Source: Giardia intestinalis (taxonomy: Eukaryota). From it: DNA of 64,000 nt. The position numbers were made by a program, and so were the translations under genes. The notes under the pieces were generated by a model. That model ran no database searches. It saw only the letters and a list, made by a program, of their open reading frames with translations, and was not told the origin of the DNA. The stretch lies in NCBI GenBank assembly GCA_000002435.2, contig CM018791.1; one strand, 5' to 3'. Within the stretch, counting starts at the first letter, position 1, and every line of letters begins with the position of its first letter. This document shows, one piece after another, positions 28,243-64,000 of the stretch.

Positions 28243-31200
28243 GCGCTACACGCCCTTGTGCGGAAGGTTCAGGTTGAGGGGGCTGTGGAAGATGTACTCC
28301 GGCGCGCAGAAGTAGTACTGCATGCAGTACCGGCCGAGGAAGAAGATGACGATGGCCAGGGCCCCCACCAGGACGTAGTTCCACGCGCTGACCTCGAGGG
28401 CCTCGCACATCGTGCCCCCGTGCGCGTCGACCGTGTCCAGCCCGTTCACGCACCGCTTGACCTTGCTGCTGAACGGGGAGGCGCGGACGGCGTCTGCGAT
28501 GGCGACCTTCTGGGCCTCGTCGGGCGCGGAGAGGAAGAGCGGGTGGACGCCGTCGCGGTCGGGCCCGTAGAAGCGGGGCATCGTGTACTCGACGGTCAAC
28601 TCGTGGCAGAGCGAGTTGGAGCCGCGGCCGATGTAGTAGTAGCCCGAGACGCCCCAGCCGGTCCCCCACGAGTTGCGCAGGATCCAGACGGGCCGGCCCT
28701 TGTGGGCCCCGTAGCCGACGAGCATGACCTGGTGGTTCGTGGTCGCGCGCACGCACTTGACGTCGGGGAAGACGCCGCCCTTGTAGAGGTTGAACGTCAG
28801 CGCAGAGGCGACGACGGACTCGTAGTCCTTGTCGATCGACGTGTCGACGCCGGACTCTGTGTGCATGGCCGCCGCGACCCCGACCCCGCGGGCCAGGACG
28901 TTCATGACGTTCCGCTCCCACTCGGCGAACTTCCCCTTGTCCATCTCCCCGACTATGGGTCCCGAGGCCGGCACGCCCTCGTTCCGCAGGATCTGGTAGA
29001 CGCCGAACTTCTTGGGGGTGCCTGAGCCACCATTGACATCATACTCGTATTCATCGCTACCTGCAGCCCCAGAATTAGAAGAGCTGCCCTTCTTCTTCAT
29101 CGGCATGGAGACGAAGGCAGGGTTGAAGTCTCCTATGTTGGTGCCCTGACACTTAGTACCATCGTCTGGGGCGGCCTTCTCGGGCGTCGCGTACTCCCTG
29201 TAGATGCACTCGGACTCCTTCGCGAGCTTGCTCAGCTTGTTGACGAAGTCTGCGATGGCGCGGAAGTAGTTCCCGCCGTTGCAGTAGTTCCCGCCGATGA
29301 GGTTGTCGAGGAGGAACTGGACGGAGAGGCGCAGGGTGGACGCGCTGTAGGACTTCCAGTTCTCGGGGATGTCGGTATACTCTTTCTCAGTACGATTTTG
29401 AACAGTTATCATTGTAGCGCAGTCAGTACTCTTCTGACTGTCATCCTGACTCGCAGGGGCCGAGCAGTTGCAGAAGTAGTTCGACGGAAAGGGCTGGGGA
29501 TCGAGGTACTTCCCCCTCGTGTAGAGGTCTGCGTCGACGAGCATCAGGTTCTCGAGGACCTCGATGGTCGTGAACTCGTAGCAGGAGCCGCACAGGCCCT
29601 GGTCCTTCGCGCGGGTCACGAGGCCCACCTCGCGGAGGTCGACGGAGTGGGGGAGCGTCCGCTGCCTGTCTTTGACGTTCATGTCCCGCACGTCGACGAG
29701 GAAGAAGCTGTCCTGCTTCTTGTTCTTGTCGTCAGCGTTGGCACTCTGTGAATTAGCTTGAGTGTCTCCCTTCAGGTCCGGCCCCAGTTCGTATGCATCG
29801 ACGTTGCAACCCTCATACTTATTGGTTTTATTAGTCCATTTGCACGCATCTGCAGCTGCGCCCCACTCGCCACCCCCCAGTGACCGGGGCGGGAGGAGGC
29901 CGGCGCGCGGGTGGCGGTCCATCCGGGACGTGATCCCGAAGGTGACGTGCTCGTGGCCCTCCCGGCGGAGCCTGCGGAGGTGCTCGAGGTGCATGCAGAA
30001 GTTCCGCTCCGCCTCCAGCCGGTCCCCGGGCGTGTCGTAGGCCTTCCCGTAGAGGCCGACGAAGCGCTCGAAGGCATGCTCGCACGCCATGTGGATGCTG
30101 AACGGGTCCCGCTCGGCCGACGCCGCGCAGAGGAAAGACAAGGTAAGCAGCAACATCCGGTCCTTTTTTGGGCCGCGGGTAGGTTAGCCGTGTGCGGGAC
30201 TTGCACACCCTACCGGGCGGGCGTCCTGTGACACCTGGCCGCAGACAGGAAGAGGAGCCCGAAGAAGACGGCCGTGCTCGCCGTCACCCCCGCCACGGCC
30301 CCGATGTTCCTCACACGACAGTCACACATATCCCCGTGGTAGCCCTCGGCACAGACACAGGCGTCCTTGTAGCACTCCCCGTGCCCTGTGCACACACTCC
30401 CAGCCAGACGGGTGTTCAGGCACTTCTTGCTGGCGCACAGCTGGCCATGGGGGACCGCGTCCTCGTCGCACTGGCACGCAAGGGCGGCTGGAGCGTCCCC
30501 GACAATCCTCCCCGAACCCCCACAGACCAGTCGCGTCTTGTTGGCGTATAGCTTCACCAGATTGTGGGGCGCACAGGCCCCATCGACGGCCGTCATGCCC
30601 TTGTCGCAGAGGTCGCAGTGCCTTCCAACGTAGCCCGGGTTGCACTGACAGGTCCATGCACCCGTAGCGTTCTGTACACACGTCCCGCCCCTCGCCTTGG
30701 GCGTCCAGTTGCAGGCAGCCCCGTTCTTCACGCACTGGGCGTGCACGCACGTGCTGTTCAGCATCACGAAGTCGTCCTCACACTTGCACAAGTACTCTCC
30801 ATCACTGTACAGGCATTCTCCGTGCGGGCACACAAGACCCGTGTCCGAAACACACCCCGCCGGGGCGCACCCGTGGTCCGGAATGTGCTTGAATGGCGGC
30901 ACACACAGACACTGGTGCCTCGCCGTGGAGTGGTCCAGTCGGCAGAGCAGAGAGCTCGTCAGGTTTGCCACGAAGCCGTCGGCGAAGATCGTGCTATTGT
31001 TGTTTCTGATGCTCTTATCAAGCATGTGGGGGTATCCGCAGAGCCGCTCTCCAACGACGCACTCGGTCGGGTAGCACAGCCCTTCCAGAGGAGAGTAGTC
31101 CTGGGGACAGGTGCCGTTGGAGGGGTGTACGTTGACCACGCGCAGCGCAGCCTCTGGCGCTGTGTGCTGCTGGCCCTGCGTCTCCTTCTTCTGATCCGCT

Positions 31201-31400
31201 CTAGCTGCGGCGTTCTGGGAGTCAGACGAGCCCGCGGGTTCGTGGTGGAGCATCCGTCCAGGCAGGTGCTTGCGGGTTGTCTTGGCTGTTGGCGTCGGCT
31301 GCTGATGTTGCGCGTCAGTGGGAAGGCTGCTGCCCTCGAGAGAAGCGGCACTCTCGCACGCAGACCCGGAGAACCCTGCATTACAGATGCAGCCATCTCT
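27300..31400. other. GC-rich compositional island (GC and GC3 far above the flanks)
   Basis: By eye the sequence switches abruptly to G/C-ending codons near 27.3 kb (inside the helicase ORF). It returns to about 48% GC near 31.4 kb (inside the large HCMP ORF). Many spurious long ORFs appear on all frames in this interval, which is the usual symptom of stop-codon depletion in GC-rich DNA. Confidence 0.6.
28246..30156 (-). CDS. Papain-family (C1) cysteine protease, cathepsin-like, enlarged (636 aa)
   Basis: Signal peptide MLLLTLSFLCAASA. ERFNIN-like pro-region fragment (EAERNFCMHLEHLRRL). Catalytic Gln/Cys block VDLREVGLVTRAKDQGLCGSCYEF. His block NHQVMLVGYG. Asn block ILRNSWGTGWGVSGYYYIGRG. 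About 290 aa lie between the catalytic Cys and His versus about 135 in canonical enzymes. Confidence 0.85.
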   Translation of the reverse strand: MLLLTLSFLCAASAERDPFSIHMACEHAFERFVGLYGKAYDTPGDRLEAERNFCMHLEHLRRLRREGHEHVTFGITSRMDRHPRAGLLPPRSLGGGEWGAAADACKWTNKTNKYEGCNVDAYELGPDLKGDTQANSQSANADDKNKKQDSFFLVDVRDMNVKDRQRTLPHSVDLREVGLVTRAKDQGLCGSCYEFTTIEVLENLMLVDADLYTRGKYLDPQPFPSNYFCNCSAPASQDDSQKSTDCATMITVQNRTEKEYTDIPENWKSYSASTLRLSVQFLLDNLIGGNYCNGGNYFRAIADFVNKLSKLAKESECIYREYATPEKAAPDDGTKCQGTNIGDFNPAFVSMPMKKKGSSSNSGAAGSDEYEYDVNGGSGTPKKFGVYQILRNEGVPASGPIVGEMDKGKFAEWERNVMNVLARGVGVAAAMHTESGVDTSIDKDYESVVASALTFNLYKGGVFPDVKCVRATTNHQVMLVGYGAHKGRPVWILRNSWGTGWGVSGYYYIGRGSNSLCHELTVEYTMPRFYGPDRDGVHPLFLSAPDEAQKVAIADAVRASPFSSKVKRCVNGLDTVDAHGGTMCEALEVSAWNYVLVGALAIVIFFLGRYCMQYYFCAPEYIFHSPLNLNLPHKGV

Positions 31401-34334
31401 GTGACAAACTCCGTGACCACTGCATGCTAAGGCACTGCCTTCTGCAAAGCAAGAATCTGGTTGGCAGGTCCTTTCTGGGGTCGCTCCATGATGGACGCAG
31501 ACGCACTGCCACTTCCCAAGGATTTTTGTGCATACTCCCGCGCCATTGCATTCTGCTGTGCTGTTATCATGTCTGATTGTCAAGCAGTGTTCGGGAGTGC
31601 AGTGCCCGTCGTCTGTGGCTACCGACCCGTGGACACAGGTTGAGCAGAGAGCCCCCGTGTAGAGCTCCTTGCATGCGCATTGAAATTTATGTACCACATT
31701 ATCAGATTGAGAAAGGAAATGTATATGTGCCTCTGTACTGTAAATTGGATAGCTGGTTCTATTAGTCAATGCTACACAGTCTCCGTGGCCAGAGCACTCG
31801 GTAAGTTCCCCAAGCTTGTTCTTTGCAACACATAACCTAGGGACACATCTCTCCTCTATCTTCCTGAAGTCCTGTTTGCAGTGGCAGGAGTGCACCTTGT
31901 TGATTTCACGGCACTCGCCGTAGGGACAGTAGACTCCAGAGACGTTGCATGCCTTGGGAACACAGCCGTAAAGCTTCTCCTGGTTCATGGTTGGAAGGAA
32001 GACATACCCAGGATCACAGACACACTTGAACTCGTTCTGAATCTTGGAGCAAGTACCGTGACCTCCACAAATGGCCGGGGAAGGGAGGCTCGAGATGCAG
32101 GCGTTAGGAACACAGGCGCCAGCCACAAAAGTCTCACCAGGCAAGCACACTATAGAGATTGTTTCGCAGTACTCTCCCTTGACATTTGGGTCACACACAC
32201 ATATGCCTTTAGAGTTGCAGTACCCAGCATTAGAGCAAATCTTGGTAGGATCCACCGGGTTTACGCAGCTCTGCATTGTGCACGTGTTACCGACAACTAT
32301 CGAGGCGGGATTACAAAGGCAGACATACTCATAATTGTCTGCACCCTCCTCGACAAGGTGATAAGAGCATTGTCCATGTCCACCACAGACAAGAAGGCTA
32401 GGATTGTGGGAGGACGCAGGCATAAGGCACTCAGGTGGATAACAACGATCATCAATTAACATAGCCTGCGATGAACAATGCTCACAGTGAGTTCCTGTAT
32501 AAGCAGGCTCACAAGCGCAGCCATAGACCATGGTATTCCCAGAGATGCCCTTCTTAATACATTTTCCTGCATTCCTGTTGCAAATGGAATTCCCAAAAGT
32601 TACACAAGAAGCGCTAACACAAATTATACCTTCGTGCTCTTCCACCTGAAGGCCAATGAACCCAGGGTCGCATTGACAAAAGGGCTTGGCACCTGCAGTA
32701 ATACATTTTCCGTTTTCACAAACAGCATTAGTGATAGGATCAATACATGCTGGATGGACACACCCATGTCCGAGCACGAACTGAAAGTCACCTCGGCAGA
32801 GACATTTATAGACAGGAAGGCCAGATGTTTCATTGTAAACCAATGTGTCTACACAGTCCCCCAACCCGTTGCAGATACTACCATCGGTGACACAAGCTTC
32901 GGGTATACAGCTTCCTTGGACATCAAGAGTCCCAAAAGGGCATGATATTAGATTGAGCTCGCACGAAAAACCTCCATACCCAACATCGCAAACACATGTA
33001 CCTCCCTTGCAGTATCCATGGTTGTTACAGATTACATTTGGAGTTGAAGCGTTGAAGCAAAAGGTAGAATAGCAACGATTTTTGTAAGGAATGGCTCCTG
33101 GACTGCAGTGACACTTGTAATCTAGATAGCTGTTGCTCTTTAGGCTGGATGAGGCTTCACACACTCCAAACCCATCACAGACTAAAAGAGAGGAATTGTA
33201 ATTATCCGGTATCTCTCGAAAGCGAACAATTTGTTGCGCTACATTACTCACAGCATATGACAAACAGTTCACGGAAATGCACCTCCCTTGGCTGTCCTCT
33301 TCTGCCTGCACAAATACAAATCCTGAGTTACAGCTACTGCATTTTATACCACCAAAATTATTGTTACATAGACAGGTATCATTTATGCACAGTCCTCTAT
33401 TGTGGCAAATGACCAGTCCTTCGTCTGAAATGGAGCTAACACACGATTGGCTTATGCACGTGCCATCAGAAGCTTGTACATATCCAGGGGAACATACACA
33501 CTCATAATTCTTGGCTGCCTCTAAGAGAACACAGTTTCCATGTGGGCAAACAGCTCCGTCCTTAATGCATTCCATTGGGACACAAAGGTCTGAGCCAACG
33601 GTCTCAAAGCCCTTGTTGCATAGACACTTTGGCTTCTTTCCGTCAACGCAGCGCCCATTTGACCCACACACAAGCCCGCGGGACAGGCACTCATCTGGAA
33701 AGCAGTCAGATCCTATACGAGTATAACCTTCATCACAGAAAACTAGTGGCTTTTCTAAAGTGCACAATGCGCCATTATGGCCTTTGTAACAAACACACTT
33801 CATGTTTAAACAGACGCCATTGCCACCACAGATTTCACCGGTTTGTGAAATGCAGGATTGATGGATGCAGACACTGCCCATGTGTAGGTATCCTGGCTTG
33901 GTGCAATTACAACTGTAATGCCCGTTGTCCAGAAGAATTGGGTGGCCTCCTCCGCCACAAACTTGAGAAAGGCTAATGTCTGTCGGATGCTTTATAGTAC
34001 ATAAGATAGGAACACACACATTATCAAGTAACATAGCTGTTTTAGGGTTGCAGGATTCACAATGCTCGCCAAGATGGAGCAAGTCACAGACACAACCCAT
34101 CCTGCCATTATCTTTATTGACGCAAGCACCACCGTTATTACAAATGCCTACCTCTGTTTTACAAGCTAGATCGTAGCAGAGACCCGGGCCAGGGCTATAG
34201 AAACCATCGTAACAGGTACAACCCAGCCTGATGCCATCCTGCTCTTCACAAACGCCATGGTTGCTACATACAACTCCATCGCTAGTGCATGGATCATTTG
34301 AGAGGAATGCAGATAATAAAGTCAACGCCAGCAT
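30210..34334 (-). CDS. Large cysteine-rich EGF-like type-I membrane protein (HCMP-like), 1374 aa
   Basis: Signal peptide MLALTLLSAFLSNDPC. Dozens of CxxC / CxCxxGYxGxxC EGF-like modules. Single C-terminal TM segment AVAGVTASTAVFFGLLFLSAA followed by an 8-aa tail RCHRTPAR. AT-rich initiator upstream of the ATG at 34334. Confidence 0.85.
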   Translation of the reverse strand: MLALTLLSAFLSNDPCTSDGVVCSNHGVCEEQDGIRLGCTCYDGFYSPGPGLCYDLACKTEVGICNNGGACVNKDNGRMGCVCDLLHLGEHCESCNPKTAMLLDNVCVPILCTIKHPTDISLSQVCGGGGHPILLDNGHYSCNCTKPGYLHMGSVCIHQSCISQTGEICGGNGVCLNMKCVCYKGHNGALCTLEKPLVFCDEGYTRIGSDCFPDECLSRGLVCGSNGRCVDGKKPKCLCNKGFETVGSDLCVPMECIKDGAVCPHGNCVLLEAAKNYECVCSPGYVQASDGTCISQSCVSSISDEGLVICHNRGLCINDTCLCNNNFGGIKCSSCNSGFVFVQAEEDSQGRCISVNCLSYAVSNVAQQIVRFREIPDNYNSSLLVCDGFGVCEASSSLKSNSYLDYKCHCSPGAIPYKNRCYSTFCFNASTPNVICNNHGYCKGGTCVCDVGYGGFSCELNLISCPFGTLDVQGSCIPEACVTDGSICNGLGDCVDTLVYNETSGLPVYKCLCRGDFQFVLGHGCVHPACIDPITNAVCENGKCITAGAKPFCQCDPGFIGLQVEEHEGIICVSASCVTFGNSICNRNAGKCIKKGISGNTMVYGCACEPAYTGTHCEHCSSQAMLIDDRCYPPECLMPASSHNPSLLVCGGHGQCSYHLVEEGADNYEYVCLCNPASIVVGNTCTMQSCVNPVDPTKICSNAGYCNSKGICVCDPNVKGEYCETISIVCLPGETFVAGACVPNACISSLPSPAICGGHGTCSKIQNEFKCVCDPGYVFLPTMNQEKLYGCVPKACNVSGVYCPYGECREINKVHSCHCKQDFRKIEERCVPRLCVAKNKLGELTECSGHGDCVALTNRTSYPIYSTEAHIHFLSQSDNVVHKFQCACKELYTGALCSTCVHGSVATDDGHCTPEHCLTIRHDNSTAECNGAGVCTKILGKWQCVCVHHGATPERTCQPDSCFAEGSALACSGHGVCHRDGCICNAGFSGSACESAASLEGSSLPTDAQHQQPTPTAKTTRKHLPGRMLHHEPAGSSDSQNAAARADQKKETQGQQHTAPEAALRVVNVHPSNGTCPQDYSPLEGLCYPTECVVGERLCGYPHMLDKSIRNNNSTIFADGFVANLTSSLLCRLDHSTARHQCLCVPPFKHIPDHGCAPAGCVSDTGLVCPHGECLYSDGEYLCKCEDDFVMLNSTCVHAQCVKNGAACNWTPKARGGTCVQNATGAWTCQCNPGYVGRHCDLCDKGMTAVDGACAPHNLVKLYANKTRLVCGGSGRIVGDAPAALACQCDEDAVPHGQLCASKKCLNTRLAGSVCTGHGECYKDACVCAEGYHGDMCDCRVRNIGAVAGVTASTAVFFGLLFLSAARCHRTPAR

Positions 34335-38676: not shown

Positions 38677-38793
38677 AGCGGCTCGAACAAGTCAATAAAG
38701 TTCATATTACGTCACGTGGCCTAGCTCAGTACCTGTAAACACAAATGAATTTGAAATGAATTCAGCTTACTCACATTATCGCAAAAAAAGGTG

Positions 38794-40992
38794 ATGTCTC
38801 AGATAGACAAGCTCATTCCGATTGTCAACTCCTTGCAGGATGTCTTCAGTGCCATAGGGCAGGACAAGACGAATATCGACCTGCCGCAGATCACCGTCGT
38901 CGGCTCCCAATCTGCGGGAAAGTCATCGGTTTTGGAGGCTGTCTGTGGGCGCGACGTTCTCCCCAGGTCTGCCGGCATTTGCACGCGGCGCCCCCTGATC
39001 CTCCAGCTGATTCCGACAAAGCCCGGTCAATTTGTCAAGGACGAGAAGGGCAAGACATACGAGGAGTGGGGCGAGTTTTTACACACAAAGGACAAAAAGT
39101 TTGTCCACTACCAAGAGATTTGCAAGGAGATCGTCGCAGAGACCGATAGGGTCACGGGCGGGACACTCAACGTCTCCCCCCTCCCGATCCGCTTGAAGCT
39201 TTTCTCCCCTACCGTCGTTCCCCTCACGCTCGTCGATCTCCCCGGTCTCGTTAAGAACGCTTTGCCGGGCCAGCCAGCGGACATCGACGTTCAGATCAAG
39301 AAGTGCGTTTACGAGTATATCCAGAAGCCGAACGCCGTCATTCTTGCTGTCTCTGCTGCAAACGCCGATCTCGCAACTTCTGACGCACTGCAGGCTGCGA
39401 TTAACTGCGATCCCAAGGGTGACCGCTCCGTCGGCGTTCTCACAAAGATCGACATCGTCGACAAGGGAACAGAGGCAACGGTGGTGTCGATTCTCCGGAA
39501 CGAGGTGCACTACTTCAAGTTGGGCTGGATCGCTGTCATGAACAGGTCCCAGAAGGACATCGACGCTCAGAAGACGATTGCGAAGCACCTGCACGACGAG
39601 GAGGAGTTCTTCCGCACTCACGATTACTATAAGCCTCTGGCTGCACAGAGCGGAGCCAAGTACCTGGCGAGACGGCTCAACCAGGTCCTCATCAACCACA
39701 TTCAGATTGTCCTGCCAGACCTTAAAATGAAGGTCCACCTCCAGCTTGACAAGTATTCCAGGGAGCTGGCATCCTATGGACAGCACCTTGAGGGTCGCGC
39801 AGAGATGGAGCGTGCTCTCCTTGGGCTCATATCCTCCTACGAGAAGGAGTACAAGGCCATCCTCGATGGTTCATCTGCCGGTGCGTCTAAGAACGAGCTA
39901 TATGGTGGTGCCCGTATCTCCTACATATTCCAAAGCGTCCTCCCCAAGATGTTTGACACAATCAGTATCCAGGAGATCCTCAACGGCGAGGATGTCCGCA
40001 CACTCATCAGAAACTCCTCTGGTACCAGGTCGAGCCTCTTCCTTTCTGAGAGCGCCTTTGAATTGCTTGTGCAGAAAGTTGTTCGCAGGCTCGAGGGCCC
40101 GTGTAAGCACTGTCTCCAGCTGGTCAAGGCTGAGCTCATATCCATTGCCAAGTCCATCCCAACACCGGAGATGAAGAAGTATCGCAGGCTCTGCAACGAG
40201 TTGGTCAACACGTGCATCAAGCTTATTAACGATCTTACAATGCCGACTGGGAAGTTCCTCCAGGACCTCATCCACTCCGAGCTGTGCTACATTAACACCC
40301 TGCACCCCGATTTTGTCGCTTCCCAGGAGTTTAAGGGACACATTGACGGCCAGAGGAATATGGCAAATCTAGACGTCTCGAATCAGGGCTTTGGCGAGAG
40401 TAACTTCGGTGGTCCGGGCGGCCCCGGCATGGGCGGCTTTCCCCCTGGTGGACCTGGCGGTCCAGGTGGTCCCGGGGGACCTGGGGGGCCTCCGGGTGGT
40501 CCTGGAATGAACCGCGGCCCTGGAGGACCTCCAGGCGCACCAGGAGGCCCCGGTGGGCCCATGAATCGTGGCCCCGGCGGTCCTGGGGGACCAGGTGGCC
40601 CAGGAGGACCCGGCCCTCAACAGTTCAACGAGTCTGTGCCGGAGAAGATCAAAGCTCAGGGTCCCCTGTCGGAGGCTGAGAAGCTTGGTGTTGACCTCAT
40701 CCCGCGTCTGATGAGCGCATACTATCGAGTTATTCGCAAAAAGATAGAGGATTCTGTTCCGAAGGCGTGCATTGCCTTTCTTGTTAAGGCCTCGATGAAC
40801 CAGCTTCAGGAGGTTTTGGTCAGAAACCTTTACTCCGGAGATAAGATCGAGGACCTTTTGTGCGAAGATCCCTCCATTAAGGAGAAGCGTGTCGCATGCA
40901 GAGAGCTCGTCGATGTTATGCAACGCGCAAGCAATATTCTCGATAAGATAGGTAACATCCGCAACGTCGAGGACCTTGCCAAGAAGGACTAA
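38794..40992 (+). CDS. Dynamin-related GTPase, about 732 aa, with Gly/Pro-repeat insert before the GED
   Basis: The ORF-track start 38791 is a GTG. The ATG is at 38794. DLIPIVNSLQDVFSAIG...LPQITVVGSQSAGKSSVLEAVCGRDVLPRSAGICTRRPLILQL is a near-identical dynamin N-terminus with G1 P-loop. LTLVDLPGL (G3). VLTKIDIVDKG (G4 TKxD). C-terminal GED-like helix. Confidence 0.9.
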   Translation: MSQIDKLIPIVNSLQDVFSAIGQDKTNIDLPQITVVGSQSAGKSSVLEAVCGRDVLPRSAGICTRRPLILQLIPTKPGQFVKDEKGKTYEEWGEFLHTKDKKFVHYQEICKEIVAETDRVTGGTLNVSPLPIRLKLFSPTVVPLTLVDLPGLVKNALPGQPADIDVQIKKCVYEYIQKPNAVILAVSAANADLATSDALQAAINCDPKGDRSVGVLTKIDIVDKGTEATVVSILRNEVHYFKLGWIAVMNRSQKDIDAQKTIAKHLHDEEEFFRTHDYYKPLAAQSGAKYLARRLNQVLINHIQIVLPDLKMKVHLQLDKYSRELASYGQHLEGRAEMERALLGLISSYEKEYKAILDGSSAGASKNELYGGARISYIFQSVLPKMFDTISIQEILNGEDVRTLIRNSSGTRSSLFLSESAFELLVQKVVRRLEGPCKHCLQLVKAELISIAKSIPTPEMKKYRRLCNELVNTCIKLINDLTMPTGKFLQDLIHSELCYINTLHPDFVASQEFKGHIDGQRNMANLDVSNQGFGESNFGGPGGPGMGGFPPGGPGGPGGPGGPGGPPGGPGMNRGPGGPPGAPGGPGGPMNRGPGGPGGPGGPGGPGPQQFNESVPEKIKAQGPLSEAEKLGVDLIPRLMSAYYRVIRKKIEDSVPKACIAFLVKASMNQLQEVLVRNLYSGDKIEDLLCEDPSIKEKRVACRELVDVMQRASNILDKIGNIRNVEDLAKKD
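40411..40617 (+). repeat. In-frame Gly/Pro-rich repeat (GGPGGPG...) encoding the dynamin insert
   Basis: About 69 codons made of (GGN CCN)n units with synonymous third-position variation. Encodes GGPGGPGMGGFPPGGPGGPGGPGGPGGPPGGPGMNRGPGGPPGAPGGPGGPMNRGPGGPGGPGGPGGPGP. Confidence 0.6.
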
Positions 40993-53472: not shown

Positions 53473-55740
53473 ATGGAGCTGCTTTTGTTTCTATCAATGC
53501 CACCGTGGGTGCTGTTTCTATACACAATTGCCATATACGTGTACACAGGAGCCTTTTATCCGTTGTCAGTAAGGCTTCTAATGCTATTACTATCACAGTT
53601 GCTGGGGCTTCACCTCGAAACTATGCGTCCACTGGCACCTACGCTCAACGACAGTGTACTCTCCTTTTACAGCGGATTTTTATATGTCTGTGCATACGCT
53701 TCTTTGTGGACATGTCTTTATGATCAAGCCTCAACCTACTTTTACTACAACGCCATTATAAGCTATTTTCTTCTAGGCCCAGATAGATTTATTAACCAAG
53801 TAGCCCGGGGTGTTATCTATCCAGATCTCTCTACAGAGGAGTCGTCAAAAGAATTGAATGCAATCCCTAACACTAACAGATTGCAACAGAAGTATACCAT
53901 TTTGCACTTTGTAGAGTTTTTTCTATCTTGGCTGATACTTTATCTCTTTGGCCACGAGGCCAAATTTTTTATCTTCACTGCATACTGCCTATTGGTTAGC
54001 GCCTCAATGCTCGTGTTTGATGGCTTAGAGACCGAAAGGTCTGTCTGTGCAATCTCGCTTCCTGTTACGCTTGTGCAGGCGAAAGAGCTACCGATGTATA
54101 CCTTCTTTCCATGTGCATTAGTGCTTCTTTATGGCATCGTCAGACAATATTCAGCTTCTGAGGATCCTACTACTCATTCTGCATACCTATTCGATGACGC
54201 TCTTGGGCGTGTTCCTGATCTCTGTAAGGAAATGCTTTCGTTGACAAAGAAGCAAGAAAAAAATGATGTTGTGTTAAAGCTGATGAACGTTTGTGCAGCC
54301 CTTCTGTATAGTACCAGTACAGAGCAGCTTATGGCTTGGGCAGCAAATATACTATCCATCGAATTAAACTGCCCCCTAATGCTGATTAACGATAATGCAG
54401 TCCATGTGGGTAGACTCACTATTAAGCAAGCCGATGTAGACGCCATATGCAGACACATACGCAATGACAGTCGCGCAACGAAGCCCTATAAGATGGTTGC
54501 TCAGTCATCAGTGGACCATACGTGCCGTATGTACAATCATTTGCGGTTGGGGAAGTTTTATGCATACATTGGAGGCCGCTCTACAATAGTAGCCTTCATT
54601 CAGCCTGAAAGACTCCATGATTTTATGGAGATAGCATCTCGTGTTGAATCCTATCTTCAGCACTGTCGAACCTTCTTCGCAGATTGCAGTAAGGCAGCCA
54701 ACACTATCCTGAATGGGTATTTACAACTGGCGGAAATGGAGGCTTCGTGGCGGAGTCTGCTTGATACATCAAGGCGGCCCTTCTATACGTTTTGGACCAT
54801 GTACCGCGACAGAATACTATCTTTACGTGGAGACTCAACTAATAAAAAGTCTTTGACCCGTGAACTGTTGCTTTGGTCAACGTACTTGTGCATCGTTTCC
54901 GACATGTTTCGTCTAGAGCCAGTGGGTGGAACACATTACGAGTTCCAACGAAAAAGAGAGGCTCCTCTTGCCCTCTACCTATTGGAAATATATGGTAGCC
55001 GCATATTAAATGCAGACTGTCAAATTGTGGCCAGCAAGAGGGTGCAGCAAAGATTTGGCCTTTTCCAGTTCTTCACAAGTAACGGCATAAATGATCAGGC
55101 TGTGCTAGCCGATATGCTGCGGATGGACATGGCCATCTATCATGCTATTATGGCATATATCTCAAGCTCCTTTGTACTTCAACCTTTTCACGATTCCTTT
55201 AGGTGTAAGATTGCCCGTGGATCACTCTTCCGGAAGCTTGAGCTCTCCGATCTTCTTGCGTACTATCGGAACAATAACTTCACTAATGGAAAAACGCGCA
55301 AGGTGGAGAGCTGTTCGGAACTCGTAAGTTACATCGATGAGCTAACAAATGAAATAATCCTAATCAGCAGCCAGTGCATCCTTAACTTTTGTGCGTGGTT
55401 CAGTGTAACAATTGATCTTCCCATCAGTAAGCTACACGTGCTGGACATCGTCGACGGTACAACGAAGGCAGAATCCTCTCAACAGAGACGGAGTATTATG
55501 CATAGCTTACAATATCGCAGTAAAGAGCAAACAGGAGCAGCCTCTTCACATTCTTTATTCACGGATACGTGCAGTAGTCCGGGAACCTATGGAATGGTCC
55601 TTCTAGACAATAAAAACATCTCTGCCCGTGCATTCCTCAGTGCAATCCACATATTGAATCTTATAGTTTGCTTTCACGATGTCTCTGAGTGCTGCATCTA
55701 TATACCTGACTATGCTGCTGGACAAACCAGCATCCTCTGA
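53473..55740 (+). CDS. Hypothetical membrane protein, 755 aa (N-terminal polytopic region plus large soluble C-terminal part)
   Basis: ATG-initiated. The first about 230 aa contain at least 6 hydrophobic helices (LLLFLSMPPWVLFLYTIAIYVY, LLMLLLSQLLGL, FLLSWLILYLFG, LLVSASMLVF, FFPCALVLLYGIV). The remainder is soluble-looking with no recognised motif. Confidence 0.65.
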   Translation: MELLLFLSMPPWVLFLYTIAIYVYTGAFYPLSVRLLMLLLSQLLGLHLETMRPLAPTLNDSVLSFYSGFLYVCAYASLWTCLYDQASTYFYYNAIISYFLLGPDRFINQVARGVIYPDLSTEESSKELNAIPNTNRLQQKYTILHFVEFFLSWLILYLFGHEAKFFIFTAYCLLVSASMLVFDGLETERSVCAISLPVTLVQAKELPMYTFFPCALVLLYGIVRQYSASEDPTTHSAYLFDDALGRVPDLCKEMLSLTKKQEKNDVVLKLMNVCAALLYSTSTEQLMAWAANILSIELNCPLMLINDNAVHVGRLTIKQADVDAICRHIRNDSRATKPYKMVAQSSVDHTCRMYNHLRLGKFYAYIGGRSTIVAFIQPERLHDFMEIASRVESYLQHCRTFFADCSKAANTILNGYLQLAEMEASWRSLLDTSRRPFYTFWTMYRDRILSLRGDSTNKKSLTRELLLWSTYLCIVSDMFRLEPVGGTHYEFQRKREAPLALYLLEIYGSRILNADCQIVASKRVQQRFGLFQFFTSNGINDQAVLADMLRMDMAIYHAIMAYISSSFVLQPFHDSFRCKIARGSLFRKLELSDLLAYYRNNNFTNGKTRKVESCSELVSYIDELTNEIILISSQCILNFCAWFSVTIDLPISKLHVLDIVDGTTKAESSQQRRSIMHSLQYRSKEQTGAASSHSLFTDTCSSPGTYGMVLLDNKNISARAFLSAIHILNLIVCFHDVSECCIYIPDYAAGQTSIL

Positions 55741-58700
55741 TGAAGAGTGTGGACACGCGAGAAGTTGATTTAGTAGGGTTTGCTTAAGCAAGTAAAGTAG
55801 ATTATCTTAGCAACGTTTAAGTTTACTCTGTTTCATCAAGGTTGGTTTGCCAACTGCTGTCCAAGCAAGTCCCACACGGGCCGCTCCGCTCTGGGCAAAG
55901 CCCGGAATCAGACTCTGAAAGCTGGATTCCATCCATCTCCGGCGGGAGAAGAAGATGTTGTGTTCCTTCCCCCGGTGGCCATCGCTTGCTTCCACGGTGC
56001 CTTCCAGGACGTCCCATCCTCTGGCCCGTCGGGGTCAACTACCGTCTGGCACTAGTGGGCACCTACTATCTCAGGACCTTGCATTAGTTGCGGTGACCTG
56101 ACCTTGGGAGTAGTCTAGCCTCCACAGAATCCAGGGTTCTGGTACTCCATGACAAAGATGGGATACGCTATGACTTCGGGTGTCTACCTCGTTCCTTGGG
56201 GTGCCTCTTCGTCTCCTCGTGGATTATACCATCAGTCTCGAGTATGATTGGAGGGTCTGCTCCCCGTGCGCCTCTATCTTGGAGTTGTGGTACGCGTTTG
56301 TGGATGCCACGGACAGCTCCCATGTGTTGTGTCGGGGGAGAAGTATGGCCCTCTGCTCATGGATCACAGTGCACTCTTGCAGGTGCTCCGTCACCCAGCA
56401 CGAGACCGTGTCGGCGCATCATTCTATGCAGTGCGTCTGGCTCGGCTGACGTGTGGGCTGGTCCATCTGCACAGCACACTTGGGGTGATGCTTCGGTCTG
56501 TCGAGGCGTCAGTCCAGGGCCACCTCTCCGAGGGGCGTCATCCGAAGCACCAAGAGCGATCAGGACCGGTTCACCGTCAGGTCGTCTCGCTTAGTGTCCG
56601 CCTACTCGAGGGTGTCAGGCACTGCCAGCTGTTGTAGCAGACGCCCGGCAGGTGGCCCAGGCCGCCACCGCTCTTCGGTGCGGTCATGTGTTCAATTTGC
56701 CTCCGTCAGCCAAGCACCCCAAGGGCCTCATCTCTTGTCAAGGGATTCATATGAATCACGTGTGGGTCCATCTCGACAAGCGTGGCGAGTGATCGGCGCC
56801 ATTGCCAGCTTCAAACGCTCATCTGCACTCGCTATCGCCTTGAGGGAAGAAGCATTCTCCTTTGTCACCAAAATGGGACAACATCTGAACCTCGATTCCC
56901 TGACTTCAGATGATGAACAAGCAGGGAAGTTCTTTGCATGGCACTTGCATGAGGGATTTGCTCGGACAGCAGTTACAGCGTCTGGCTGCATGTTTCTCTT
57001 ACAAGCCTGGTAATTGACTAGGCTTGCTTTACAGTCGCGGAGACACTGCTGCGTCTCTCTGAGTCTTTTAGAGAGACGATCCAGTTTAGTGTAGAAGAGC
57101 GAACGCGACCCAGTCCCGTTCCTACCTGCTGCTCTACGGTCTGCTGCCGCTACTTGTTGTTCTCATTTCCCCTGCTATTGATAGTCGCAATACTCTATGA
57201 AGCAATCGCTTACATCCATCCGCAACCCTAGGCGTTACGGCTTGGAAGGCCATGTCACCGTATAAGCTCTATGGAGGGCATTTACTAGCCATGGCAGATG
57301 GAGGTCGCTGCTTCTGGAGGCCCTGGTGCATGTCGGGTCAGAAGACGCTGACTCCACTGGCTGCAGGAGCCCCCACTTACTGTGACAGCTTGAACTAGCA
57401 CCACTTCGAGGACAGAGGATATCTACAGCCCGAGAGGACACTCCTGCAGAGAACAGATTCAGGCATAGTCGCCAACAGATCCTTGATCCGGATAGATGAG
57501 AGCAGATACCCAATTAGTAAGGCTTTGACTAAGCTACGCAGAATCGCATCCTTCAACACCAGACTCTGACACACGAAGTCTAAGGCAGACCATAGGTACA
57601 TAGCAGACGGGTAGAAACCTGCTTCGTAGTGTGTGGAGGCTTTGATGAGGCAATCGCGGGCTTAATGAAGGCCGGGACCGGTAGCTCTAACAGACAGTTC
57701 CCCAGCTTTGGAATACTTGCGATCACCATAGAGTCAATACAGTGAGTTATCTGCAGTAACAAACTTGTGGGGATAAGAGCAGAGTTCCACCAAACTAGTT
57801 AGACACTAATGGATCCTAGCGCGAACTCGCAGTATAGGGACTTGCAGAAGGCACCGCGTTCTACTCATCTGAGTAAGACGGCCAAATGAGTGGACCCATA
57901 GTGCAAAGACCACGAGGCCAAGGGCTCCTCCATAGCCTCAGAAGCTAACATCACAAGAGTCACACTGGCTGCGGAGTGCTTTCTGATCCACTGAGGCTTA
58001 GCGGCATGGCTTCAGTTCCTAGTACGGCCAGACAGGCTTGAGACACGAGATACTCTGTCTGCTGCAAAGCACACCTTCTGGCAGCGACTCTGGTCTATCG
58101 AGTAACTCTCGCATAGAGGAGGCAGATGGCTCTGAAGCGTCACTGCTCGCCTGATAGCTCTGAGTCATGGCAGAGGAAGCTGTTTATGAGAATGCACCCC
58201 TAGTGTGTAGATCCACATTTTCGTGCGACGTGAGAAGACGCTCCTGGATTGATCTGTCATGCCTCTGTCTGCTCTAGCAAAAAGTAACCCAGCGTATGCA
58301 CTAGTGATCTATGTCGCCATGGCATCTGTAGCTAACTAGCCAACGAGACAATCACTAGAGGAACCCTCGCACACTTATGAGCGGAGGTGCAGCCTGAGAG
58401 CAATCCTCTGGCCGCTAAGTGATGGAAGAGCAGACATAGCGTTGCTCCGTACAATCACACTCTCTCACCTTAGTAGCTATGTGGGCAGCCCCGGTCTCGT
58501 GAAGTCTGTGGATAAGCTGCTTCACCCCATAAAGCATCCAGAATTACTACAGGTGACACCTGCAAAATCTTACTGCGGGAGGCCATGCTCCGCTAGAGAC
58601 GTGGCTCTGGAAACACATTAGCTGATGGGAGCTCCCCTCTGGCGTTCTTAGCGGCGGTGTCTGTCTACAATAGCTCTTACACCCACTGCCTGTATATGGC

Positions 58701-61700
58701 CCAACTGTGCCGTATTAGACCCCTGTCTCCACTGAACGGCTGATTCAAGGGCGATTGCCGTTACCAAGATGATACCTTACATTGACTTCTAAGAGCTGTC
58801 TTTGCATATATTACGCTGCTTAGTACTGCGCTCAAACGAAGCTTGCTATTGCTCCGCATCTATTGTGGATTGGAAGAGCAGTTAGCACTCTCAGTGGTCC
58901 ATGTGGTAATCGGAAGCCAGGGAAGTCTAAGTTGAGTGAGAAGCTTGAGAAGCGAGTAGCAGCCCTTATACTCCTCTGCCGGGTGATACAGAGAACTGGC
59001 TCGTTCCTTAGCGTCGATAGTTCTTCAGAATGCACGTTTCTTTGTTTGAGACCTGCATGCTTCGGATTGTCCTCTGTTGCCAGCAGAGCAGCCACCGCCC
59101 TGTGTGTCTCCTTCAGGCACATGCCCATCTATGACGGCGCCTCCTGCCTCTTCTCTGGAGAGGCATAACCGTCCCAATCCAGACACCTTGCTCTCAGCAC
59201 GCATCTCGTATCCAGCAGAAGCCAGGGGCTCATCAACCATATTCCATGAGCATCAGCGCTGTGCCGCTATGTTACTTCCTGTTCTTCTTGAGGGGAGTGC
59301 TCTGACCATCCCAGTGTCTCTATGATAGAAGAGCTGTGGATCCAGAGATGATTGTTGCTTTCTGGCCCTCTCTTCTGTTCAGTAGACTGCGAGAGCGCCC
59401 TTCAGGAGTCGGTCCCCCAACCTTCTGTTCTCTCGGGGAAGTGGTCCTTGGATAGTGCCACTTGGATGATTCTCGAAGCCTCACTGCACGGGTGCTGCTT
59501 TACAAACACTCCTGGCTGAAGCTGGACCCGAATCCTCCTAGAGTTACCTGCTGGCCCAGTCCTTGATTGCTATCAGCAGAGGTCTCAACCTTCCAAGGAC
59601 ATCTCGGGGACAATACGTTTGGCCCACGTCAGCGCCACTTCCTGGCAGGGGCATGCAGAAGATCTGCTCCCTCTTGTAGATCCATCATTGGTATCGAGAG
59701 CACTGCGCCTGCTATCCTCGCTGGAAGTGTCGGTAGACTGTGCCCCGTATCTATCCCATTGAAGAGTTGGAGGTCCGCCAGGGACAGCGAAGAGGATTTC
59801 ATCAAAACTCTGATAGTAGATTTGCCATCATGGCAGCCATAACGTAAATAAGGCCACCAGCTGTCTGATCCCTGCAACTTCCGGGGTGAGACGCCAGGAG
59901 GCGTGGCTGGTTCAGACTAGTGAGGGCTACTCTTGTCATAGCAGGCTCAGAAAGTAGGGAGCAGATGACGTACCTGATGTCCCTCAACGTACGCATGCAG
60001 CCTGGAAACCGTGCTCAAAGCACCGAGGCCTGCAGGGGAGTGGCATCCGAACAGGCCCGACAGTTATGACTGCTTCTGAGGACAAGTCAGCGTGACTAAA
60101 CGAGAACATGAGAACTCACAGAGACCCTCACAGTTTTGATGTCTGGGAGAACGCGGGGGCTGACCACTCCAAGGTTGTCCATCTCATGAGCTGGTTTCCG
60201 ATAGCAGGCATAACAAGGAAGTGTCCTCCAGTCATACACAATTTCATGCCAGCTCATCTCAGGGTAAAGCATCCTTGTCTGGCTTGCCAGTCCATCCATG
60301 ACGGCAGCAGATGTGTCAGCATTCCATATCATCGGCCACTTTGCTGCTGCACAGTCAGAGTACTGCTCGTGGCATTGCTTGCTGATGCTCTGCATAAGGC
60401 CATGTTCCCGTGGCAGTGACAGGTGAGTCTCTTCGTATCTGTAGTTCATCACAGGTACGGCTTCTCTTGGGTCTTCCACTTCTACGTCTGTCTGGTATCT
60501 CACCTCAATGCGAGTGGCCAGCTGCTGTTATTAGATCTTGCAGTATAACTATTACGCATGTGTGTGTCCATCAAGACTACCATATGAGGCTATACACATC
60601 TGGAGTTCTGTTTAGCAGTTATCAGACTCGATATCAAGATGGCACGGGGACAACACTCCCATTGGTCGCCGGGGACATGAATCATCATACAAGCCGCATA
60701 GTGCACCAGAGGCAGCACGACGGTGGAGGGCATGCCTGGAGGTAGATGGCGCCTACAGCAAGTGGCATGCTGTCGTTGTCAGTACAACGGGCATAGTGGC
60801 TACTGGACCCACACTTTAGCAACCTCAGTCGAAGCAGCTGCACATTGAAGGAACAAGTTATAAGTCTCGCCCGCACTGTTGGGTGGTGCTCTGCCTTGAT
60901 GCTAACTCAGCGGACCAGCCCTCACATCGGTGACGGGGAGCAGGACACCGCGCTGGTCACGTGATAAGATGCCTTCACACAATATTCTAACTATTCTAAG
61001 TCACGTTGGAAAGTGGCTAGCCCTTTTGTACTCCTCCTCTCTGAACGGGACTGGAGACACTTAAGGCCCCTTTTAAAGTCTCAGTATCATGGAACCACTG
61101 CCAGGCAACAAACCTTGTACTGTATAGCATGAGAGTCTTTAGGACATATAAAAAGCTGTGCGACCATAGCAACACGTCTTCGTTCACAGGTGCTAGCGGA
61201 ATCGATGGGCACTAGTGAAGCATATTAGCGGGTAGACGACATACTGATTCAGGCACTCTGCGTGCGGTCATGCCCCACAGCTCTCGTAATGGGCCACGGG
61301 CGGCTTGAGGACCGGTGCTCTATGACGGCGCGAGTGTGGAGTGGTGTGCCCAGAGCATCGCCGGACCGATAGCTTCAGCGCGGCATCCAACACGGTACAG
61401 CAGGGAGTTCAAGCCAGCTGAGCATTGGACCAGGCCCTGGATGGGAATTGAGGGTTCCTGTGCACGACTGGGCTACTCTCTAGATGGGACAGGGTGCACA
61501 GTGAGCTGGGTGGGTGCGATGCTGTAAGGTATCCATAGTCGTGTCGATGCATCTGGTAAGTCCACACTGCCGGACAAGCCAAGAAGACCTGAGGGGTAAT
61601 GGTGCCGTCTTGTTATCGCTATGCAGTACTTTAGGGCACGTAGCTAAAGATGTATCCCCTGATGGCTGGGAAAAGGGCAGAGCTAAATGAATAGTGACTA

Positions 61701-64000
61701 TGCCCATCATGAGCAGCTCCAGATGCTACCCAATCACTCCCTGGAAGCGCATATATCTCAGATAGGTGACACTACATTCAGAGTAGAAGAGGAAGTTGTG
61801 CACTGTCTGACCTGCCATTCAGGACCATGTGCGGATAAAAGGTAGCCCAGCGACTGACGCTCTGCATCACCTCCTCGTCCGCGACTTAAGCAACCAGAAG
61901 TCAGCCTCGATATGCAGGACAGGGGCTGCGAGGAGTAAACTCACCACGGGCCCGATTGTCTGACACCAAAAAATCCGGGACGACGACGGCAGCCGCTGTC
62001 TCCCTAGGAGGATGTATTATGCACGGTATCGACCTTGGTCCCCTAGACGGATTGTTTGGGGCACTCTGCACTAGCCCTGACTTCTGAGGCATTACAGCCT
62101 GTGAATAGCACAAAGTGAGGCAAAAAGATATATAGATGGTGTGTCGCTTTTATGGAGAGGTACTCCAACTTTTAGATGCGCACAGCTGCACCGGGATAGG
62201 CAGTTCACCTGGCTTACATTGGTGGCCTGCCCGCCGCCACATTTGTTGCGACAAGAAGCTGCACTTGTCCAATAGATTGAACAAGCATTACAGCGGCTTC
62301 TCTGATGATCCATGCATAGCCATGTGCCGTCCTAGTAGGTAGCATAGATACCATAATATCTAACCCATCTGTTGCTAGCAAGGAATAGCAGTTAATCGCA
62401 CTAGATACCCTTTTAGGCAGGCATACAGTTTCTGTACTTGCACTTCCACCAGTTGTAATGACAAATGTACATTCAGAAAGGTGTTATGGAACGCTCTGCT
62501 GCCTTTCAAGGTGAGACCTAGACCTACATATAAAGCTAAAGGCAGAACTCTACACATCAATTGTTATGATATTAGTGTGGTGACCGGTTTGGACTAAGGC
62601 ACGCTCCTCACCTATCTATGTGCTTGTTTGCATGCTCGCTGCTAGCGTTGGACAGGACTGCGAGAGGGTCTGCCTCGGGCTGCACCCTCTTTATAACACT
62701 TACCCCTTGATGACACACCTTAACAAAGGAGGATGTCGGCTAAGTGCGTAGAAGGCTGCCCGTGCATGGCGATTCCTGGAGAACCGGTTCATACAGAGAA
62801 GGTAGGGGTGACCAGCGGACCAGTTGGGCAAGGCTGGTGCTAGAGAGGCCAGCTACCGGTCTGGATTGCAATAGGGACACCTGTAGTATCTTTCTGCCCT
62901 TCGAGTGTGGAAAGATCGTGAGGCCCGCTGACAAGCTGGACGCTGCTTTTTGATTTTATGCATTTGTAGCAGCATAATATCTATTGGGGTCCACTTCGCT
63001 TGAAACCGAGGAAGCTTAAGTTCTCTCCGTATACAGGCAAGGATCATTTGTAGAGGTATACTGCGCAGGCTGGTATCAGTCGGCGTGGTTGCTGTCCGCA
63101 GATGTCTCACCTACGTCTTCTCATGGCAGATGATCATCAACAACACTTTTCGGCCACGTGGTGTTCTACAGTGTACCTTCACCTTCGACCAAAGGTTGGC
63201 ACACGCATTATGTAGTTTAGATTGCTCATCACCCAGGGTGGTATAGTCAGCTCCTGTCCCTTGCTTGTCCATCTCGTGCAACCATTTATTGATGGCCTTT
63301 CTAGATCAACAGGTGCCTCCATCGGTCCCACAAAGGAATGTGTCATGCAGGCGGCCACTACAGGTTAGGGTCTTCCTACCAAGGAAAAGGGTCAATCGGT
63401 TTACTGCGTGGGGATCCTCTGTGCGTCTCATATAGGCCTGACAGCCCTTGTGCCCCAGTATCTCCTCGCAAGCCGCTGTTTGGAGTCCACATGCATATGA
63501 TTAGCACCACGCATTTGGTTTCAACAAACTATTTAGGGCGTTAGACCCTTTGCACTGCACACTGAGTATGCTCAGCGTGGGAGGTACACAATCAGCATTG
63601 GTCTTCTCGGCTTATTGTATGTATAATATTACTGTTGCTTCGTATTCAACTAGTGGTCCAGCTCATGACCTTGAGCGCAGATGATGGCCCGTCAACGGGT
63701 ATTAGCGGCGATCGTGGCACGTACTTCCACTAGGGCACGGCCTCCTGGGTAGGGGCATAAGTGGACTTCTGTTATTCTGCGGGTTTGCTGCTCCCTCGGA
63801 TAGCAAAGATTGGAGTAGCCCAGACTAGCATTGATCATCTCCGAGTCTCCATCTGTCCTCGTTGTCTGAGGTAGGCTTGATTTCATAAACTGGAAGGCAC
63901 TGCACTGTACTCTGGATCTGCGAAATTCAATTAGGCAGGGCTGCTATCTCGGTGACTGCACTGATGTAGCCTCACACCCCGTAGGACCTACAGGGAGCAT
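55741..64000. other. 8.2-kb ORF-poor block (no ORF over 140 aa on either strand), putatively non-coding or decayed
   Basis: Upstream of this block, coding occupies at least 85% of the sequence. Here stop codons occur at roughly random-expectation density in all six frames, with about 50% GC. There are no tandem repeats, no rRNA signature motifs and no telomeric TAGGG arrays. A GC-richer sub-block at about 56.2-57.0 kb gives overlapping 130-aa ORFs in all three + frames. This is stop depletion, not a convincing protein. Confidence 0.5.

Follow-up and report, generated by a model that had tools for sequence, protein, structure and literature searches.

In the compact Giardia genome, where the mean intergenic distance is 477 bp (PMC7000408), regions of low coding density have been remarked on in two genome papers. 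There are 20–30 of them per chromosome and they coincide with high allelic heterozygosity and a high density of SNPs between AI and AII (Ankarklev et al. 2015, PMC4570179), and allelic variation is also raised in gene-poor regions (Xu et al. 2020, PMC7000408). The stretch considered here, the block, is positions 55741–64000 of a 64,000-nucleotide window of Giardia intestinalis WB and lies directly 3′ of the gene GL50803_0016956. Its resemblance to those regions is that coding is far below average over several kb, that AI-AII divergence is strongly above that of the neighbouring genes, and that short-read assemblies fragment there. Though far from typical when set against the mean intergenic distance, it has others like it, and is a further instance of the feature noted in the two papers rather than something extraordinary in itself. 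There are also differences. The described regions are usually by VSP or HCMP genes, whereas neither kind is visible in the window or in the 0.7–1.2 kb beyond it that can be followed in homologues. Conversely, the two papers say nothing, for their regions, of a repeat with inverted termini, of a neutral rate or of synteny kept from one assemblage to another. The parts of the block, and the gene that bounds it, are these.

53473–55740, + strand: GL50803_0016956, which encodes a 755-aa hypothetical protein and, as the gene preceding the block, bounds it on the left; the exact protein is in NCBI/UniRef (Giardia intestinalis WB)
55741–55817, + strand: short 3′ flank of GL50803_0016956, probable 3′ UTR, ahead of the repeat; 92% identical to AII contigs
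55818–56985, no strand assigned: decayed copy, about 1.2 kb, of a Giardia repeat, GC-rich (57%) and dispersed, with imperfect terminal inverted repeats; ends approximate, to about 30 bp
55852–55876, + strand: best-preserved core (25 nt) of the left terminal inverted repeat, 88% complementary to 56950–56974
56950–56974, − strand: best-preserved core of the right terminal inverted repeat, pairing with 55852–55876
56986–61999, no strand assigned: non-coding DNA, apparently single-copy, with a neutral rate and moderate divergence of WB (AI) from AII-like sequence; colinear with P15
62000–64000, no strand assigned: continuation of the desert, where by identity and informative sites WB is no closer to the AII-like contigs than to assemblage E; exits the window

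The initial annotation had described 8.26 kb free of long open reading frames (ORFs), with ORF statistics like those of neutral DNA and with dense coding to its left, and on all three counts it was right. The longest start-to-stop ORF in 55741–64000 has 139 aa (56594–57013), and the longest stop-free stretch in six frames has 174 codons, compared with 158 ± 27 in shuffled sequences. There are 110–117 stops per frame where base composition leads to an expectation of 118, and the period-3 Fourier signal is 0.16, as against 5–59 for the window's 17 genes. Coding is dense in the rest of the window; the ORF listing is empty in 1–9.7 kb because the left end of the window cuts through an ORF of more than 3238 aa. 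Past 64000 homologous contigs stay ORF-free, one (L011) for 705 bp and that of P15 (L007) for about 1.2 kb, and the true size of the block is therefore at least about 9–10 kb. Neither ORF lists nor gene calls bring up anything substantial in any of the three lineages.

Is anything encoded there? Six-frame stop-masked translations of the block contain no Pfam domain at E ≤ 1, with no signal for VSP, reverse transcriptase, endonuclease, kinase, ankyrin or transposase in any frame. No tRNA was found in it, and no Rfam family was matched at either the gathering threshold or a permissive E ≤ 1. Neither the 139-aa ORF, by exact look-up, nor P0052 was on record. Exhaustive HMMER searches with the eight longest open stretches brought up nothing but repeat-derived ORFs and ORFs of the orthologous block, and neither these searches nor Pfam gave the residual similarity to a functional protein by which a pseudogene may be known. 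Four ORF translations, from 58.8–59.2 and 60.1–60.7 kb, matched only WB itself and orthologous variants at 86–94%, with no related Giardia protein among 1.84 billion representatives; as far as these four translations tell, the remaining 7 kb or more to the right of the repeat is apparently single-copy. Searches for tandem and internal repeats in the block yielded nothing except the pair of inverted termini, and no 16-mer of the block recurs elsewhere in the window. In the block AA/TT dinucleotides and homopolymers of at least 5 are depleted (10 observed, about 25 expected), which is odd for junk DNA and counts against considering it unconstrained.

That a join, or foreign or chimeric DNA, had been introduced in assembly was one of the initial suggestions, and it has some superficial appeal: every short-read contig with the flanking gene ends 38–600 bp past the stop codon, and GC content steps from 46% to 52–57% at the boundary. 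However, the P15 (assemblage E) contig ACVC01000133.1 is colinear and continuous from the flanking gene through the whole homologous block. Three ENA metagenome contigs that are assemblage-A-like, and probably AII, are also colinear with it, and in three samples 56986–61999 is spanned by single metagenome contigs with 100% identity between them. The DHA2 contig runs across the gene/block junction, covering 55741–56339 only, and a WB-type read set provides a 991-bp contig that is 100% identical to 59582–60572. The contig breaks lie within the dispersed repeat or next to it, and at an adjoining structural difference, which may be their cause; short-read assemblies of this locus probably break at the repeat. 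Colinear homologues in independently assembled genomes and metagenomes refute the suggestion, and the likelihood of a join, contamination or horizontally acquired DNA in the WB assembly is practically nil. The same breaks are at most an indirect hint of within-isolate heterozygosity, though the repeat may cause them instead. JGI metagenome contigs, scanned twice for the right flank with AII and WB 36–38-mers, gave no match. The homologous block is 6.9 kb in WB and 7.5 kb in P15, and small indels between lineages are frequent in it. Of the other initial thought, that this might prove to be an intergenic region conserved in related genomes, what stands is the position, as synteny, and not the sequence.

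Of the 42 matches in the exhaustive HMMER searches, 38 fall in 55939–57219, in each of the + frames and also on the − strand. The named matches are 'hypothetical proteins' at eight other DHA2 loci and GL50803_0027657, which is on another WB chromosome. The repeat involved is present at a minimum of nine DHA2 loci, all annotated as 'hypothetical proteins', and at two or more WB loci on different chromosomes. Two other copies, in L015 and L016, sit between unrelated genes, and relative to both the window copy has an internal deletion; its DNA identity is 75% to the L016 copy over 895 nt and 73–78% to the L015 copy. The 3′ flank at 55741–55817 is unrelated to the sequence beside repeat copies at other loci, and aligns with P15 within the 86% flank match. 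Copies were also compared by multiple alignment. The left termini of the window and L015 copies and their reverse-complemented right termini can all be aligned with one another across about 130 nt, and the left end of the L016 copy can be aligned to them. The terminal inverted repeats of the L015 copy are of 109 nt at 75% (E = 3e-14), and 56950–56974 in the window has an inverted match at the left end of the L016 copy, over 28 nt at 86%. The copy in the window predates the split of assemblages A and E. Ascribing the 56.2–57.0 kb segment to the frameshifted remnant of a gene is unsupported; the same DNA recurs at many loci.

By its architecture only, 55818–56985 looks like a non-autonomous element of DNA-transposon type. 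In its size, about 1.2–1.4 kb, and its imperfect inverted termini of about 100–130 nt it is akin to MITE-like elements or deleted elements of Tc1/mariner size, and in occurring at many unlinked intergenic sites without an intact ORF it is akin to non-autonomous DNA transposons with terminal inverted repeats generally. It differs from these in that no transposase-bearing master copy is to be seen, that neither the window copy nor any of eight ORFs of the family contains a transposase by Pfam, and that no target-site duplication is visible at its approximate ends, where divergence of about 25–30% would erase a short one. In the searchable literature no report of DNA transposons in Giardia was found. 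The Giardia non-LTR retrotransposons GilM, GilT and the dead GilD (Arkhipova & Morrison 2001, as cited in PMC7000408) were the initial suspects and are likewise dead repetitive DNA in this organism, but the repeat has no remnant of a reverse transcriptase or endonuclease (Pfam, six frames), its termini are inverted and not LINE-like, and its approximately 1.2 kb is to be compared with 5.5 kb for GilM (PMC7000408). A graveyard of decayed genes or retroelements had been offered as one explanation of the block; what survives of it is that the left 1.2 kb is a dead repetitive element with inverted termini, while there is no trace of reverse transcriptase and in the other 7 kb no remnant of gene or element was detected.

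How fast does the block change? Identity between WB and P15 is 0.69 in the block; the four-fold sites of five flanking genes, 1477 in number, give 0.714. For 56986–61999 it is 0.64–0.75 per 250 bp, and the divergence K is 0.36–0.42, as against 0.36 at the flank four-fold sites. Ordinary short spacers in the flanks have 0.78–0.91 identity, and the GL50803_0016956 region has 86–91% nucleotide identity to P15. Only two runs of at least 14 nt are identical three ways in 7 kb, and no conserved island was seen in the WB–P15 or three-way comparisons. As divergence of the block equals that of four-fold sites in its flanks, the block evolves neutrally, without conserved islands: it drifts at the neutral rate.

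The comparison of WB with AII-like contig L010 gives another picture. In 56986–61999 K is 0.10–0.19, compared with 0.030 at the flank four-fold sites, and in 62000–64000, where identity is 0.67–0.73, it is 0.44 and 0.37. Across the block it is thus 0.10–0.44, or 3–15 times the neutral flank value, for a contig whose AII identity we infer. Among informative sites at 62–63 kb, 197 favour ((AII,P15),WB), against 94 and 116, and at 62–64 kb WB is outside the AII-like contigs and P15. A uniformly raised local mutation rate was considered as the cause of the AI-AII excess and rejected: a 3–15-fold rate would have reduced A-E identity to about 40% or lower, and 69% is seen.

What then is the block? 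We judge it probable, without regarding the matter as settled, that this stretch of Giardia intestinalis chromosome is real, old and free of selective constraint, one of the known low-coding, highly polymorphic regions. It would comprise some 77 bp of GL50803_0016956 3′ flank, one dead copy of the approximately 1.2-kb repeat, and 7 kb or more of apparently single-copy DNA in which no protein, tRNA or recognisable structured RNA seems to be encoded. Sequence-dependent function would be absent, and its persistence would be due to small-scale deletion being too slow to remove it. If there is no purifying selection in the block and inter-lineage homogenisation, as appears, does not reach there, its haplotypes would consequently be much older than those of the flanking genes, and older haplotypes would in turn show as local discordance of trees and a very high AI-AII divergence. 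The sequence of the 7-kb part no longer reveals where it came from; long-dead genes or elements are one possible source. It is against this explanation that in a genome which is 81.5% coding at least 9 kb of seemingly useless DNA has outlasted the separation of A and E with little change in length; selection on length or position could account for such retention.

Greater specificity about the 7-kb part is possible if it is the graveyard of a dead VSP/HCMP gene array, or of a non-LTR retrotransposon of GilD/GilM/GilT type, decayed past easy recognition. Gene-poor regions of WB tend to surround VSPs, and 208 pseudo-VSPs are in arrays, with reverse-transcriptase remnants between VSP pairs (PMC7000408). 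Having been non-coding since before the A/E split, the block has had a long time for decay, and there is a slight excess of CXXC in its P15 homologue (23 vs 15.6 ± 3.5) and in its AII homologue (21 vs 11.8 ± 3.5). WB itself, though, when tested for a decayed VSP by CXXC density, CRGKA and GGCY, has neither that excess nor a CRGKA remnant. With the absence from window and adjoining homologous sequence of any VSP, the lack of Pfam signal in any frame and the failure of the four translations to find a Giardia relative, we consider such a graveyard unlikely. A locus for a long non-coding RNA or a small-RNA cluster, functioning independently of conservation of primary sequence, is another reading, and nothing directly supportive of it was found; the neutral rate and lack of conserved islands argue against a sequence-dependent RNA, and the frequent small indels and absence of Rfam families even at E ≤ 1 are also unfavourable, making it very improbable.

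Small regional centromeres in Candida albicans and C. dubliniensis, and in Toxoplasma gondii, have a unique, gene-free core of several kb whose position is conserved among close relatives while its sequence is not. The gene-free block has with respect to P15 also kept its syntenic position while diverging, behaviour that is not specific to centromeres. The block might, more generally, be a chromosomal element defined by position and epigenetically, whether small regional centromere, replication origin or heterochromatin domain. It is gene-free, without detected paralogue, at least 9 kb long and A/E-syntenic, with length roughly kept and sequence not; there is a degenerate mobile element inside it, A-tracts are depleted, and its haplotypes are older than those of the flanks, as suppressed exchange would lead one to expect. 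According to PMC12669663 the centromeres of Giardia have yet to be identified, hence there is no contradiction, and a search of the literature for Giardia centromere DNA and for the gene IDs returned nothing specific. Unlike the Candida and Toxoplasma cases, however, Giardia has many gene-poor regions of this sort, and with 20–30 low-coding, high-variation regions per chromosome (PMC4570179) the prior for any one is a few percent. In addition, the WB-P15 rate is neutral and not faster, there is no tandem or inverted repeat architecture, and instead of AT-richness the block has 52% GC, compared with 46–49% in its flanks. A positional element of some kind is very improbable, and somewhat more so is its narrower form, in which the block is, or is part of, the regional centromere of the chromosome, with a unique gene-free core specified epigenetically, position kept, sequence drifting, and suppressed exchange preserving pre-A/E haplotypes.

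For annotation, the consequence is that a family of Giardia 'hypothetical proteins' are spurious ORFs from a dispersed non-coding repeat, called in its different frames because GC-richness leaves three frames open; among them are GL50803_0027657, DHA2_153228, 152793, 152313, 152867, 151171, 150640, 151684 and 152905, and a 253-aa call in P15. For population genetics, the block, read as an ancient unconstrained stretch, would be a clean internal neutral yardstick. Non-coding deserts may keep haplotypes 3–15 times older than those of adjacent genes, in one segment with WB as outgroup to AII plus assemblage E, and such haplotypes matter to the question, debated for assemblage A, of asexuality, recombination and gene conversion. 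In chromosome biology, blocks of this type would be natural candidates to inspect once CenH3 is mapped. Transitions dominate the substitutions in the block at about 8:1, to be set beside the 'about 80%' given for transitions in PMC4570179.

Is the right end of the window, 55741-64000 (the block), really without genes? The initial annotation, which had found no long ORF after the stop at 55740, is borne out as written. The longest start-to-stop ORF in the block is 139 aa, stops number 110-117 per frame where base composition predicts 118, and, over all frames, stop-free runs reach at most 174 codons (shuffles, 158 +/- 27), so that both stop density and open-stretch lengths are random-like. The period-3 Fourier signal is 0.16 in the block versus 5-59 in the window's 17 genes. 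Stop-masked translations of all six frames gave no Pfam family at E <= 1, and the block has no tRNA and no Rfam match, whether at gathering score or at E <= 1; it also lacks tandem repeats, and its only internal repeat is one inverted pair. The best-supported reading, and one that we consider reasonably probable, is that the block is an old and inert gene desert with a dead repeat copy in it, and that it belongs with Giardia regions of an already known class.

The repeat copy takes the place of what had been suggested to be the frameshifted remnant of a gene in the GC-rich left part (56.2-57.0 kb). The block's eight longest open stretches, joined, were compared exhaustively (HMMER) with 1.84 billion representative proteins, which gave 42 matches in total. 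Four of these, at 86-100% identity, come from the ORFs at 60.1-60.7 kb, either as WB's own sequence or as orthologous variants. The remaining 38 fall without exception in 55939-57219, using each of the three + frames as well as the - strand, and the proteins concerned are Arg/Ser/Pro/Cys-rich readings of one DNA in differing frames, with no Pfam domain in them. The named ones are 'hypothetical proteins' from separate contigs of the assemblage AII isolate DHA2 (DHA2_153228, 152793, 152313, 152867/152866, 151171, 150640, 151684 and 152905) and, on another WB chromosome, GL50803_0027657; at least nine DHA2 loci have the repeat. As homologous DNA is read in different frames at many loci, a broken gene is not supported. 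Gene models derived from the repeat are annotated 'hypothetical protein' in varying frames (e.g., GL50803_0027657, DHA2_152313 and a 253-aa call in the assemblage E isolate P15), and are very probably spurious.

The gene bordering the block and the repeat copies compared
53473-55740, + strand: GL50803_0016956, 755 aa, identical to the Giardia intestinalis WB (AI) protein
55818-56985: repeat copy in the window, GC-rich, with inverted termini
~9785-11155 of L015 (DHA2): repeat copy, the sole occupant of a 1.8-kb gap that separates a DEAD-box helicase gene from a PIG-U-like gene
~5870-7200 of L016 (metagenome contig): repeat copy adjoining the gene for a 2073-aa RING protein
~12350-13450 of L007 (P15): repeat copy

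The copies are ~1.2-1.4 kb long with inverted termini of ~100-130 nt, and their DNA identity to each other is 72-82%. In the L015 copy the inverted termini are 109 nt (75%, E = 3e-14) and pair in the predicted minimum-energy fold, while the window copy retains a 25-nt inverted core at 88% (55852-55876 with 56950-56974). The right end of the window copy resembles the left end of that in L016, in inverted orientation; in the window and L015 copies the left termini can be aligned with the right termini, once these are reverse-complemented, for ~130 nt, the L016 left terminus aligns with them too, and upstream of ~55818 the sequences flanking the copies are unrelated. To judge from this architecture, the repeat is a non-autonomous element with terminal inverted repeats. 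As neither a target-site duplication at the approximate ends of the copies nor, with Pfam on the window copy and family ORFs, a transposase was found, it is from dispersion only that we infer its mobility. No description of such a Giardia element was found in the searchable literature. The window and P15 copies have in common an internal deletion relative to those in L015 and L016, and so the insertion is older than the A/E split.

Could the block be an assembly join, or a foreign or chimeric insert, as had also been considered? Contigs of other isolates, located via exact-protein look-ups, exclude this. In P15 (ACVC01000133.1, L007) no credible gene occurs for at least 10 kb downstream of the orthologue, and this DNA is colinear with the entire block at an identity of 0.62-0.75 per 250 bp. 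Three AII-like ENA metagenome contigs from different samples (L010, L011 and L012), mutually 100% identical, are colinear with 57093-64000, and L011 extends 705 bp past the window end. A DHA2 contig spans the gene-block junction as far as 56339, and 59582-60572 is matched at 100% identity by a Logan contig assembled from WB-type reads. With colinear homologues in so many independent contigs, an assembly artefact is not tenable.

Every short-read or metagenome contig with the GL50803_0016956 orthologue (L001, L003-L006, L008 and L009) ends 38-600 bp past the stop codon (window 55741-56340), in WB-like samples, in AII samples and in two samples whose orthologues have ~76-77% protein identity. 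From the right, the AII-like L010 and L012 both terminate at ~57093. Their terminal 46 nt (7133-7178 and 3437-3482, respectively; window ~57047-57093) are GC-rich with no WB or P15 homology, a sign that the AII-like lineage has a structural difference, or a further repeat, immediately to the right of the element. The unassembled interval is the position of the repeat and this adjacent difference, which together probably explain the contig breaks with no need to invoke misassembly.

At the stop codon WB-P15 identity drops sharply, from 0.84-0.92 to ~0.69; in ordinary short intergenic spacers of the flank it is 0.78-0.91. At 1477 four-fold degenerate sites of five flanking genes, identity is 0.714 and K = 0.36. 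As K in the block is 0.36-0.42, the block evolves at the neutral rate. Over 7 kb, WB, the AII-like contig and P15 share just two identical runs of at least 14 nt, so no conserved element is concealed there; that a sequence-dependent RNA comes from the block is highly unlikely. From the lack of ORFs in all three lineages we infer that the non-coding state goes back to their common ancestor. A positional function, most interestingly that of a centromere, would fit the block's syntenic, apparently single-copy and sequence-free character, and Giardia centromeres are unidentified (PMC12669663), but similar regions in Giardia are so numerous that the probability is low.

In the 7 kb to the right of the repeat no features were found, and composition is near-uniform at 52% GC. 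That it is a graveyard specifically of VSPs or retroelements is doubtful and without positive evidence: the WB 7 kb has no VSP-like cysteine pattern, and the CXXC excess in the P15 and AII homologues is only 2-2.6 SD. The origin of this DNA is beyond recovery. CpG observed/expected is ~0.6 in all three lineages, with TpG/CpA excess (57000-64000; L007, L010), AA/TT is depleted in 57000-64000 relative to shuffles, and homopolymer runs of at least 5 are under-represented (10 versus ~25 expected). Among polarised WB/AII differences transitions outnumber transversions ~8:1, and CpG transitions occur at 1.7 times the non-CpG rate. Context-dependent mutation and cytosine methylation are candidate causes of these biases.

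How old is the variation in such a desert? K(WB-DHA2) at the four-fold sites of the flank is 0.030. For WB versus the AII-like contigs, so labelled from distances rather than a linked marker gene, K is 0.10-0.19 over 57-62 kb, and 0.44 and 0.37 over 62-64 kb, the latter on a par with the A-E distance (L010/L011 and L007 being the sequences compared). DHA2 identity to WB is 92%, down to 71-82%, within 600 bp past the stop codon. Were the mutation rate simply raised throughout, the A-E comparison would be saturated, which it is not, and so the block must hold haplotypes that long predate those of the genes beside it, via ancient polymorphism or introgression. Informative sites at 62-63 kb favour ((AII,P15),WB) by 197 to 94 and 116, and K(AII-P15) there is 0.27, under the flank neutral value, which points to a WB haplotype at 62-64 kb that predates the A/E split, or to introgression. 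The raised AI-AII divergence is consistent with published Giardia low-coding regions, 20-30 per chromosome, with which dense SNP and heterozygosity peaks coincide (PMC4570179), and with the greater allelic variation of gene-poor regions (PMC7000408).

Left of the block, the window is densely coding, with genes for a dynamin, a P4-type ATPase and a WD40/PROPPIN protein among the neighbours of GL50803_0016956, which is carried on a 1,973,847-bp record. The diplomonad origin guessed in the initial annotation is correct. Two very large divergent ORFs occupy 1-18083, one of >3238 codons on the - strand and one of 2730 aa on the + strand, with a spacer of ~175 bp; the former exits the window's left end, hence an apparent 1-9.7 kb gap in the ORF list. 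The coding stretch 27000-31500 has a GC of 0.59-0.66 versus 0.45-0.50 elsewhere in the window, which presumably accounts for its abundant long antisense or overlapping ORFs (e.g., 27079-27966, 28184-28921 and 28258-29025). The dynamin ORF (38791-40992) is listed with a GTG start and its exact product is absent from the protein collection searched; its true start is probably a downstream ATG.
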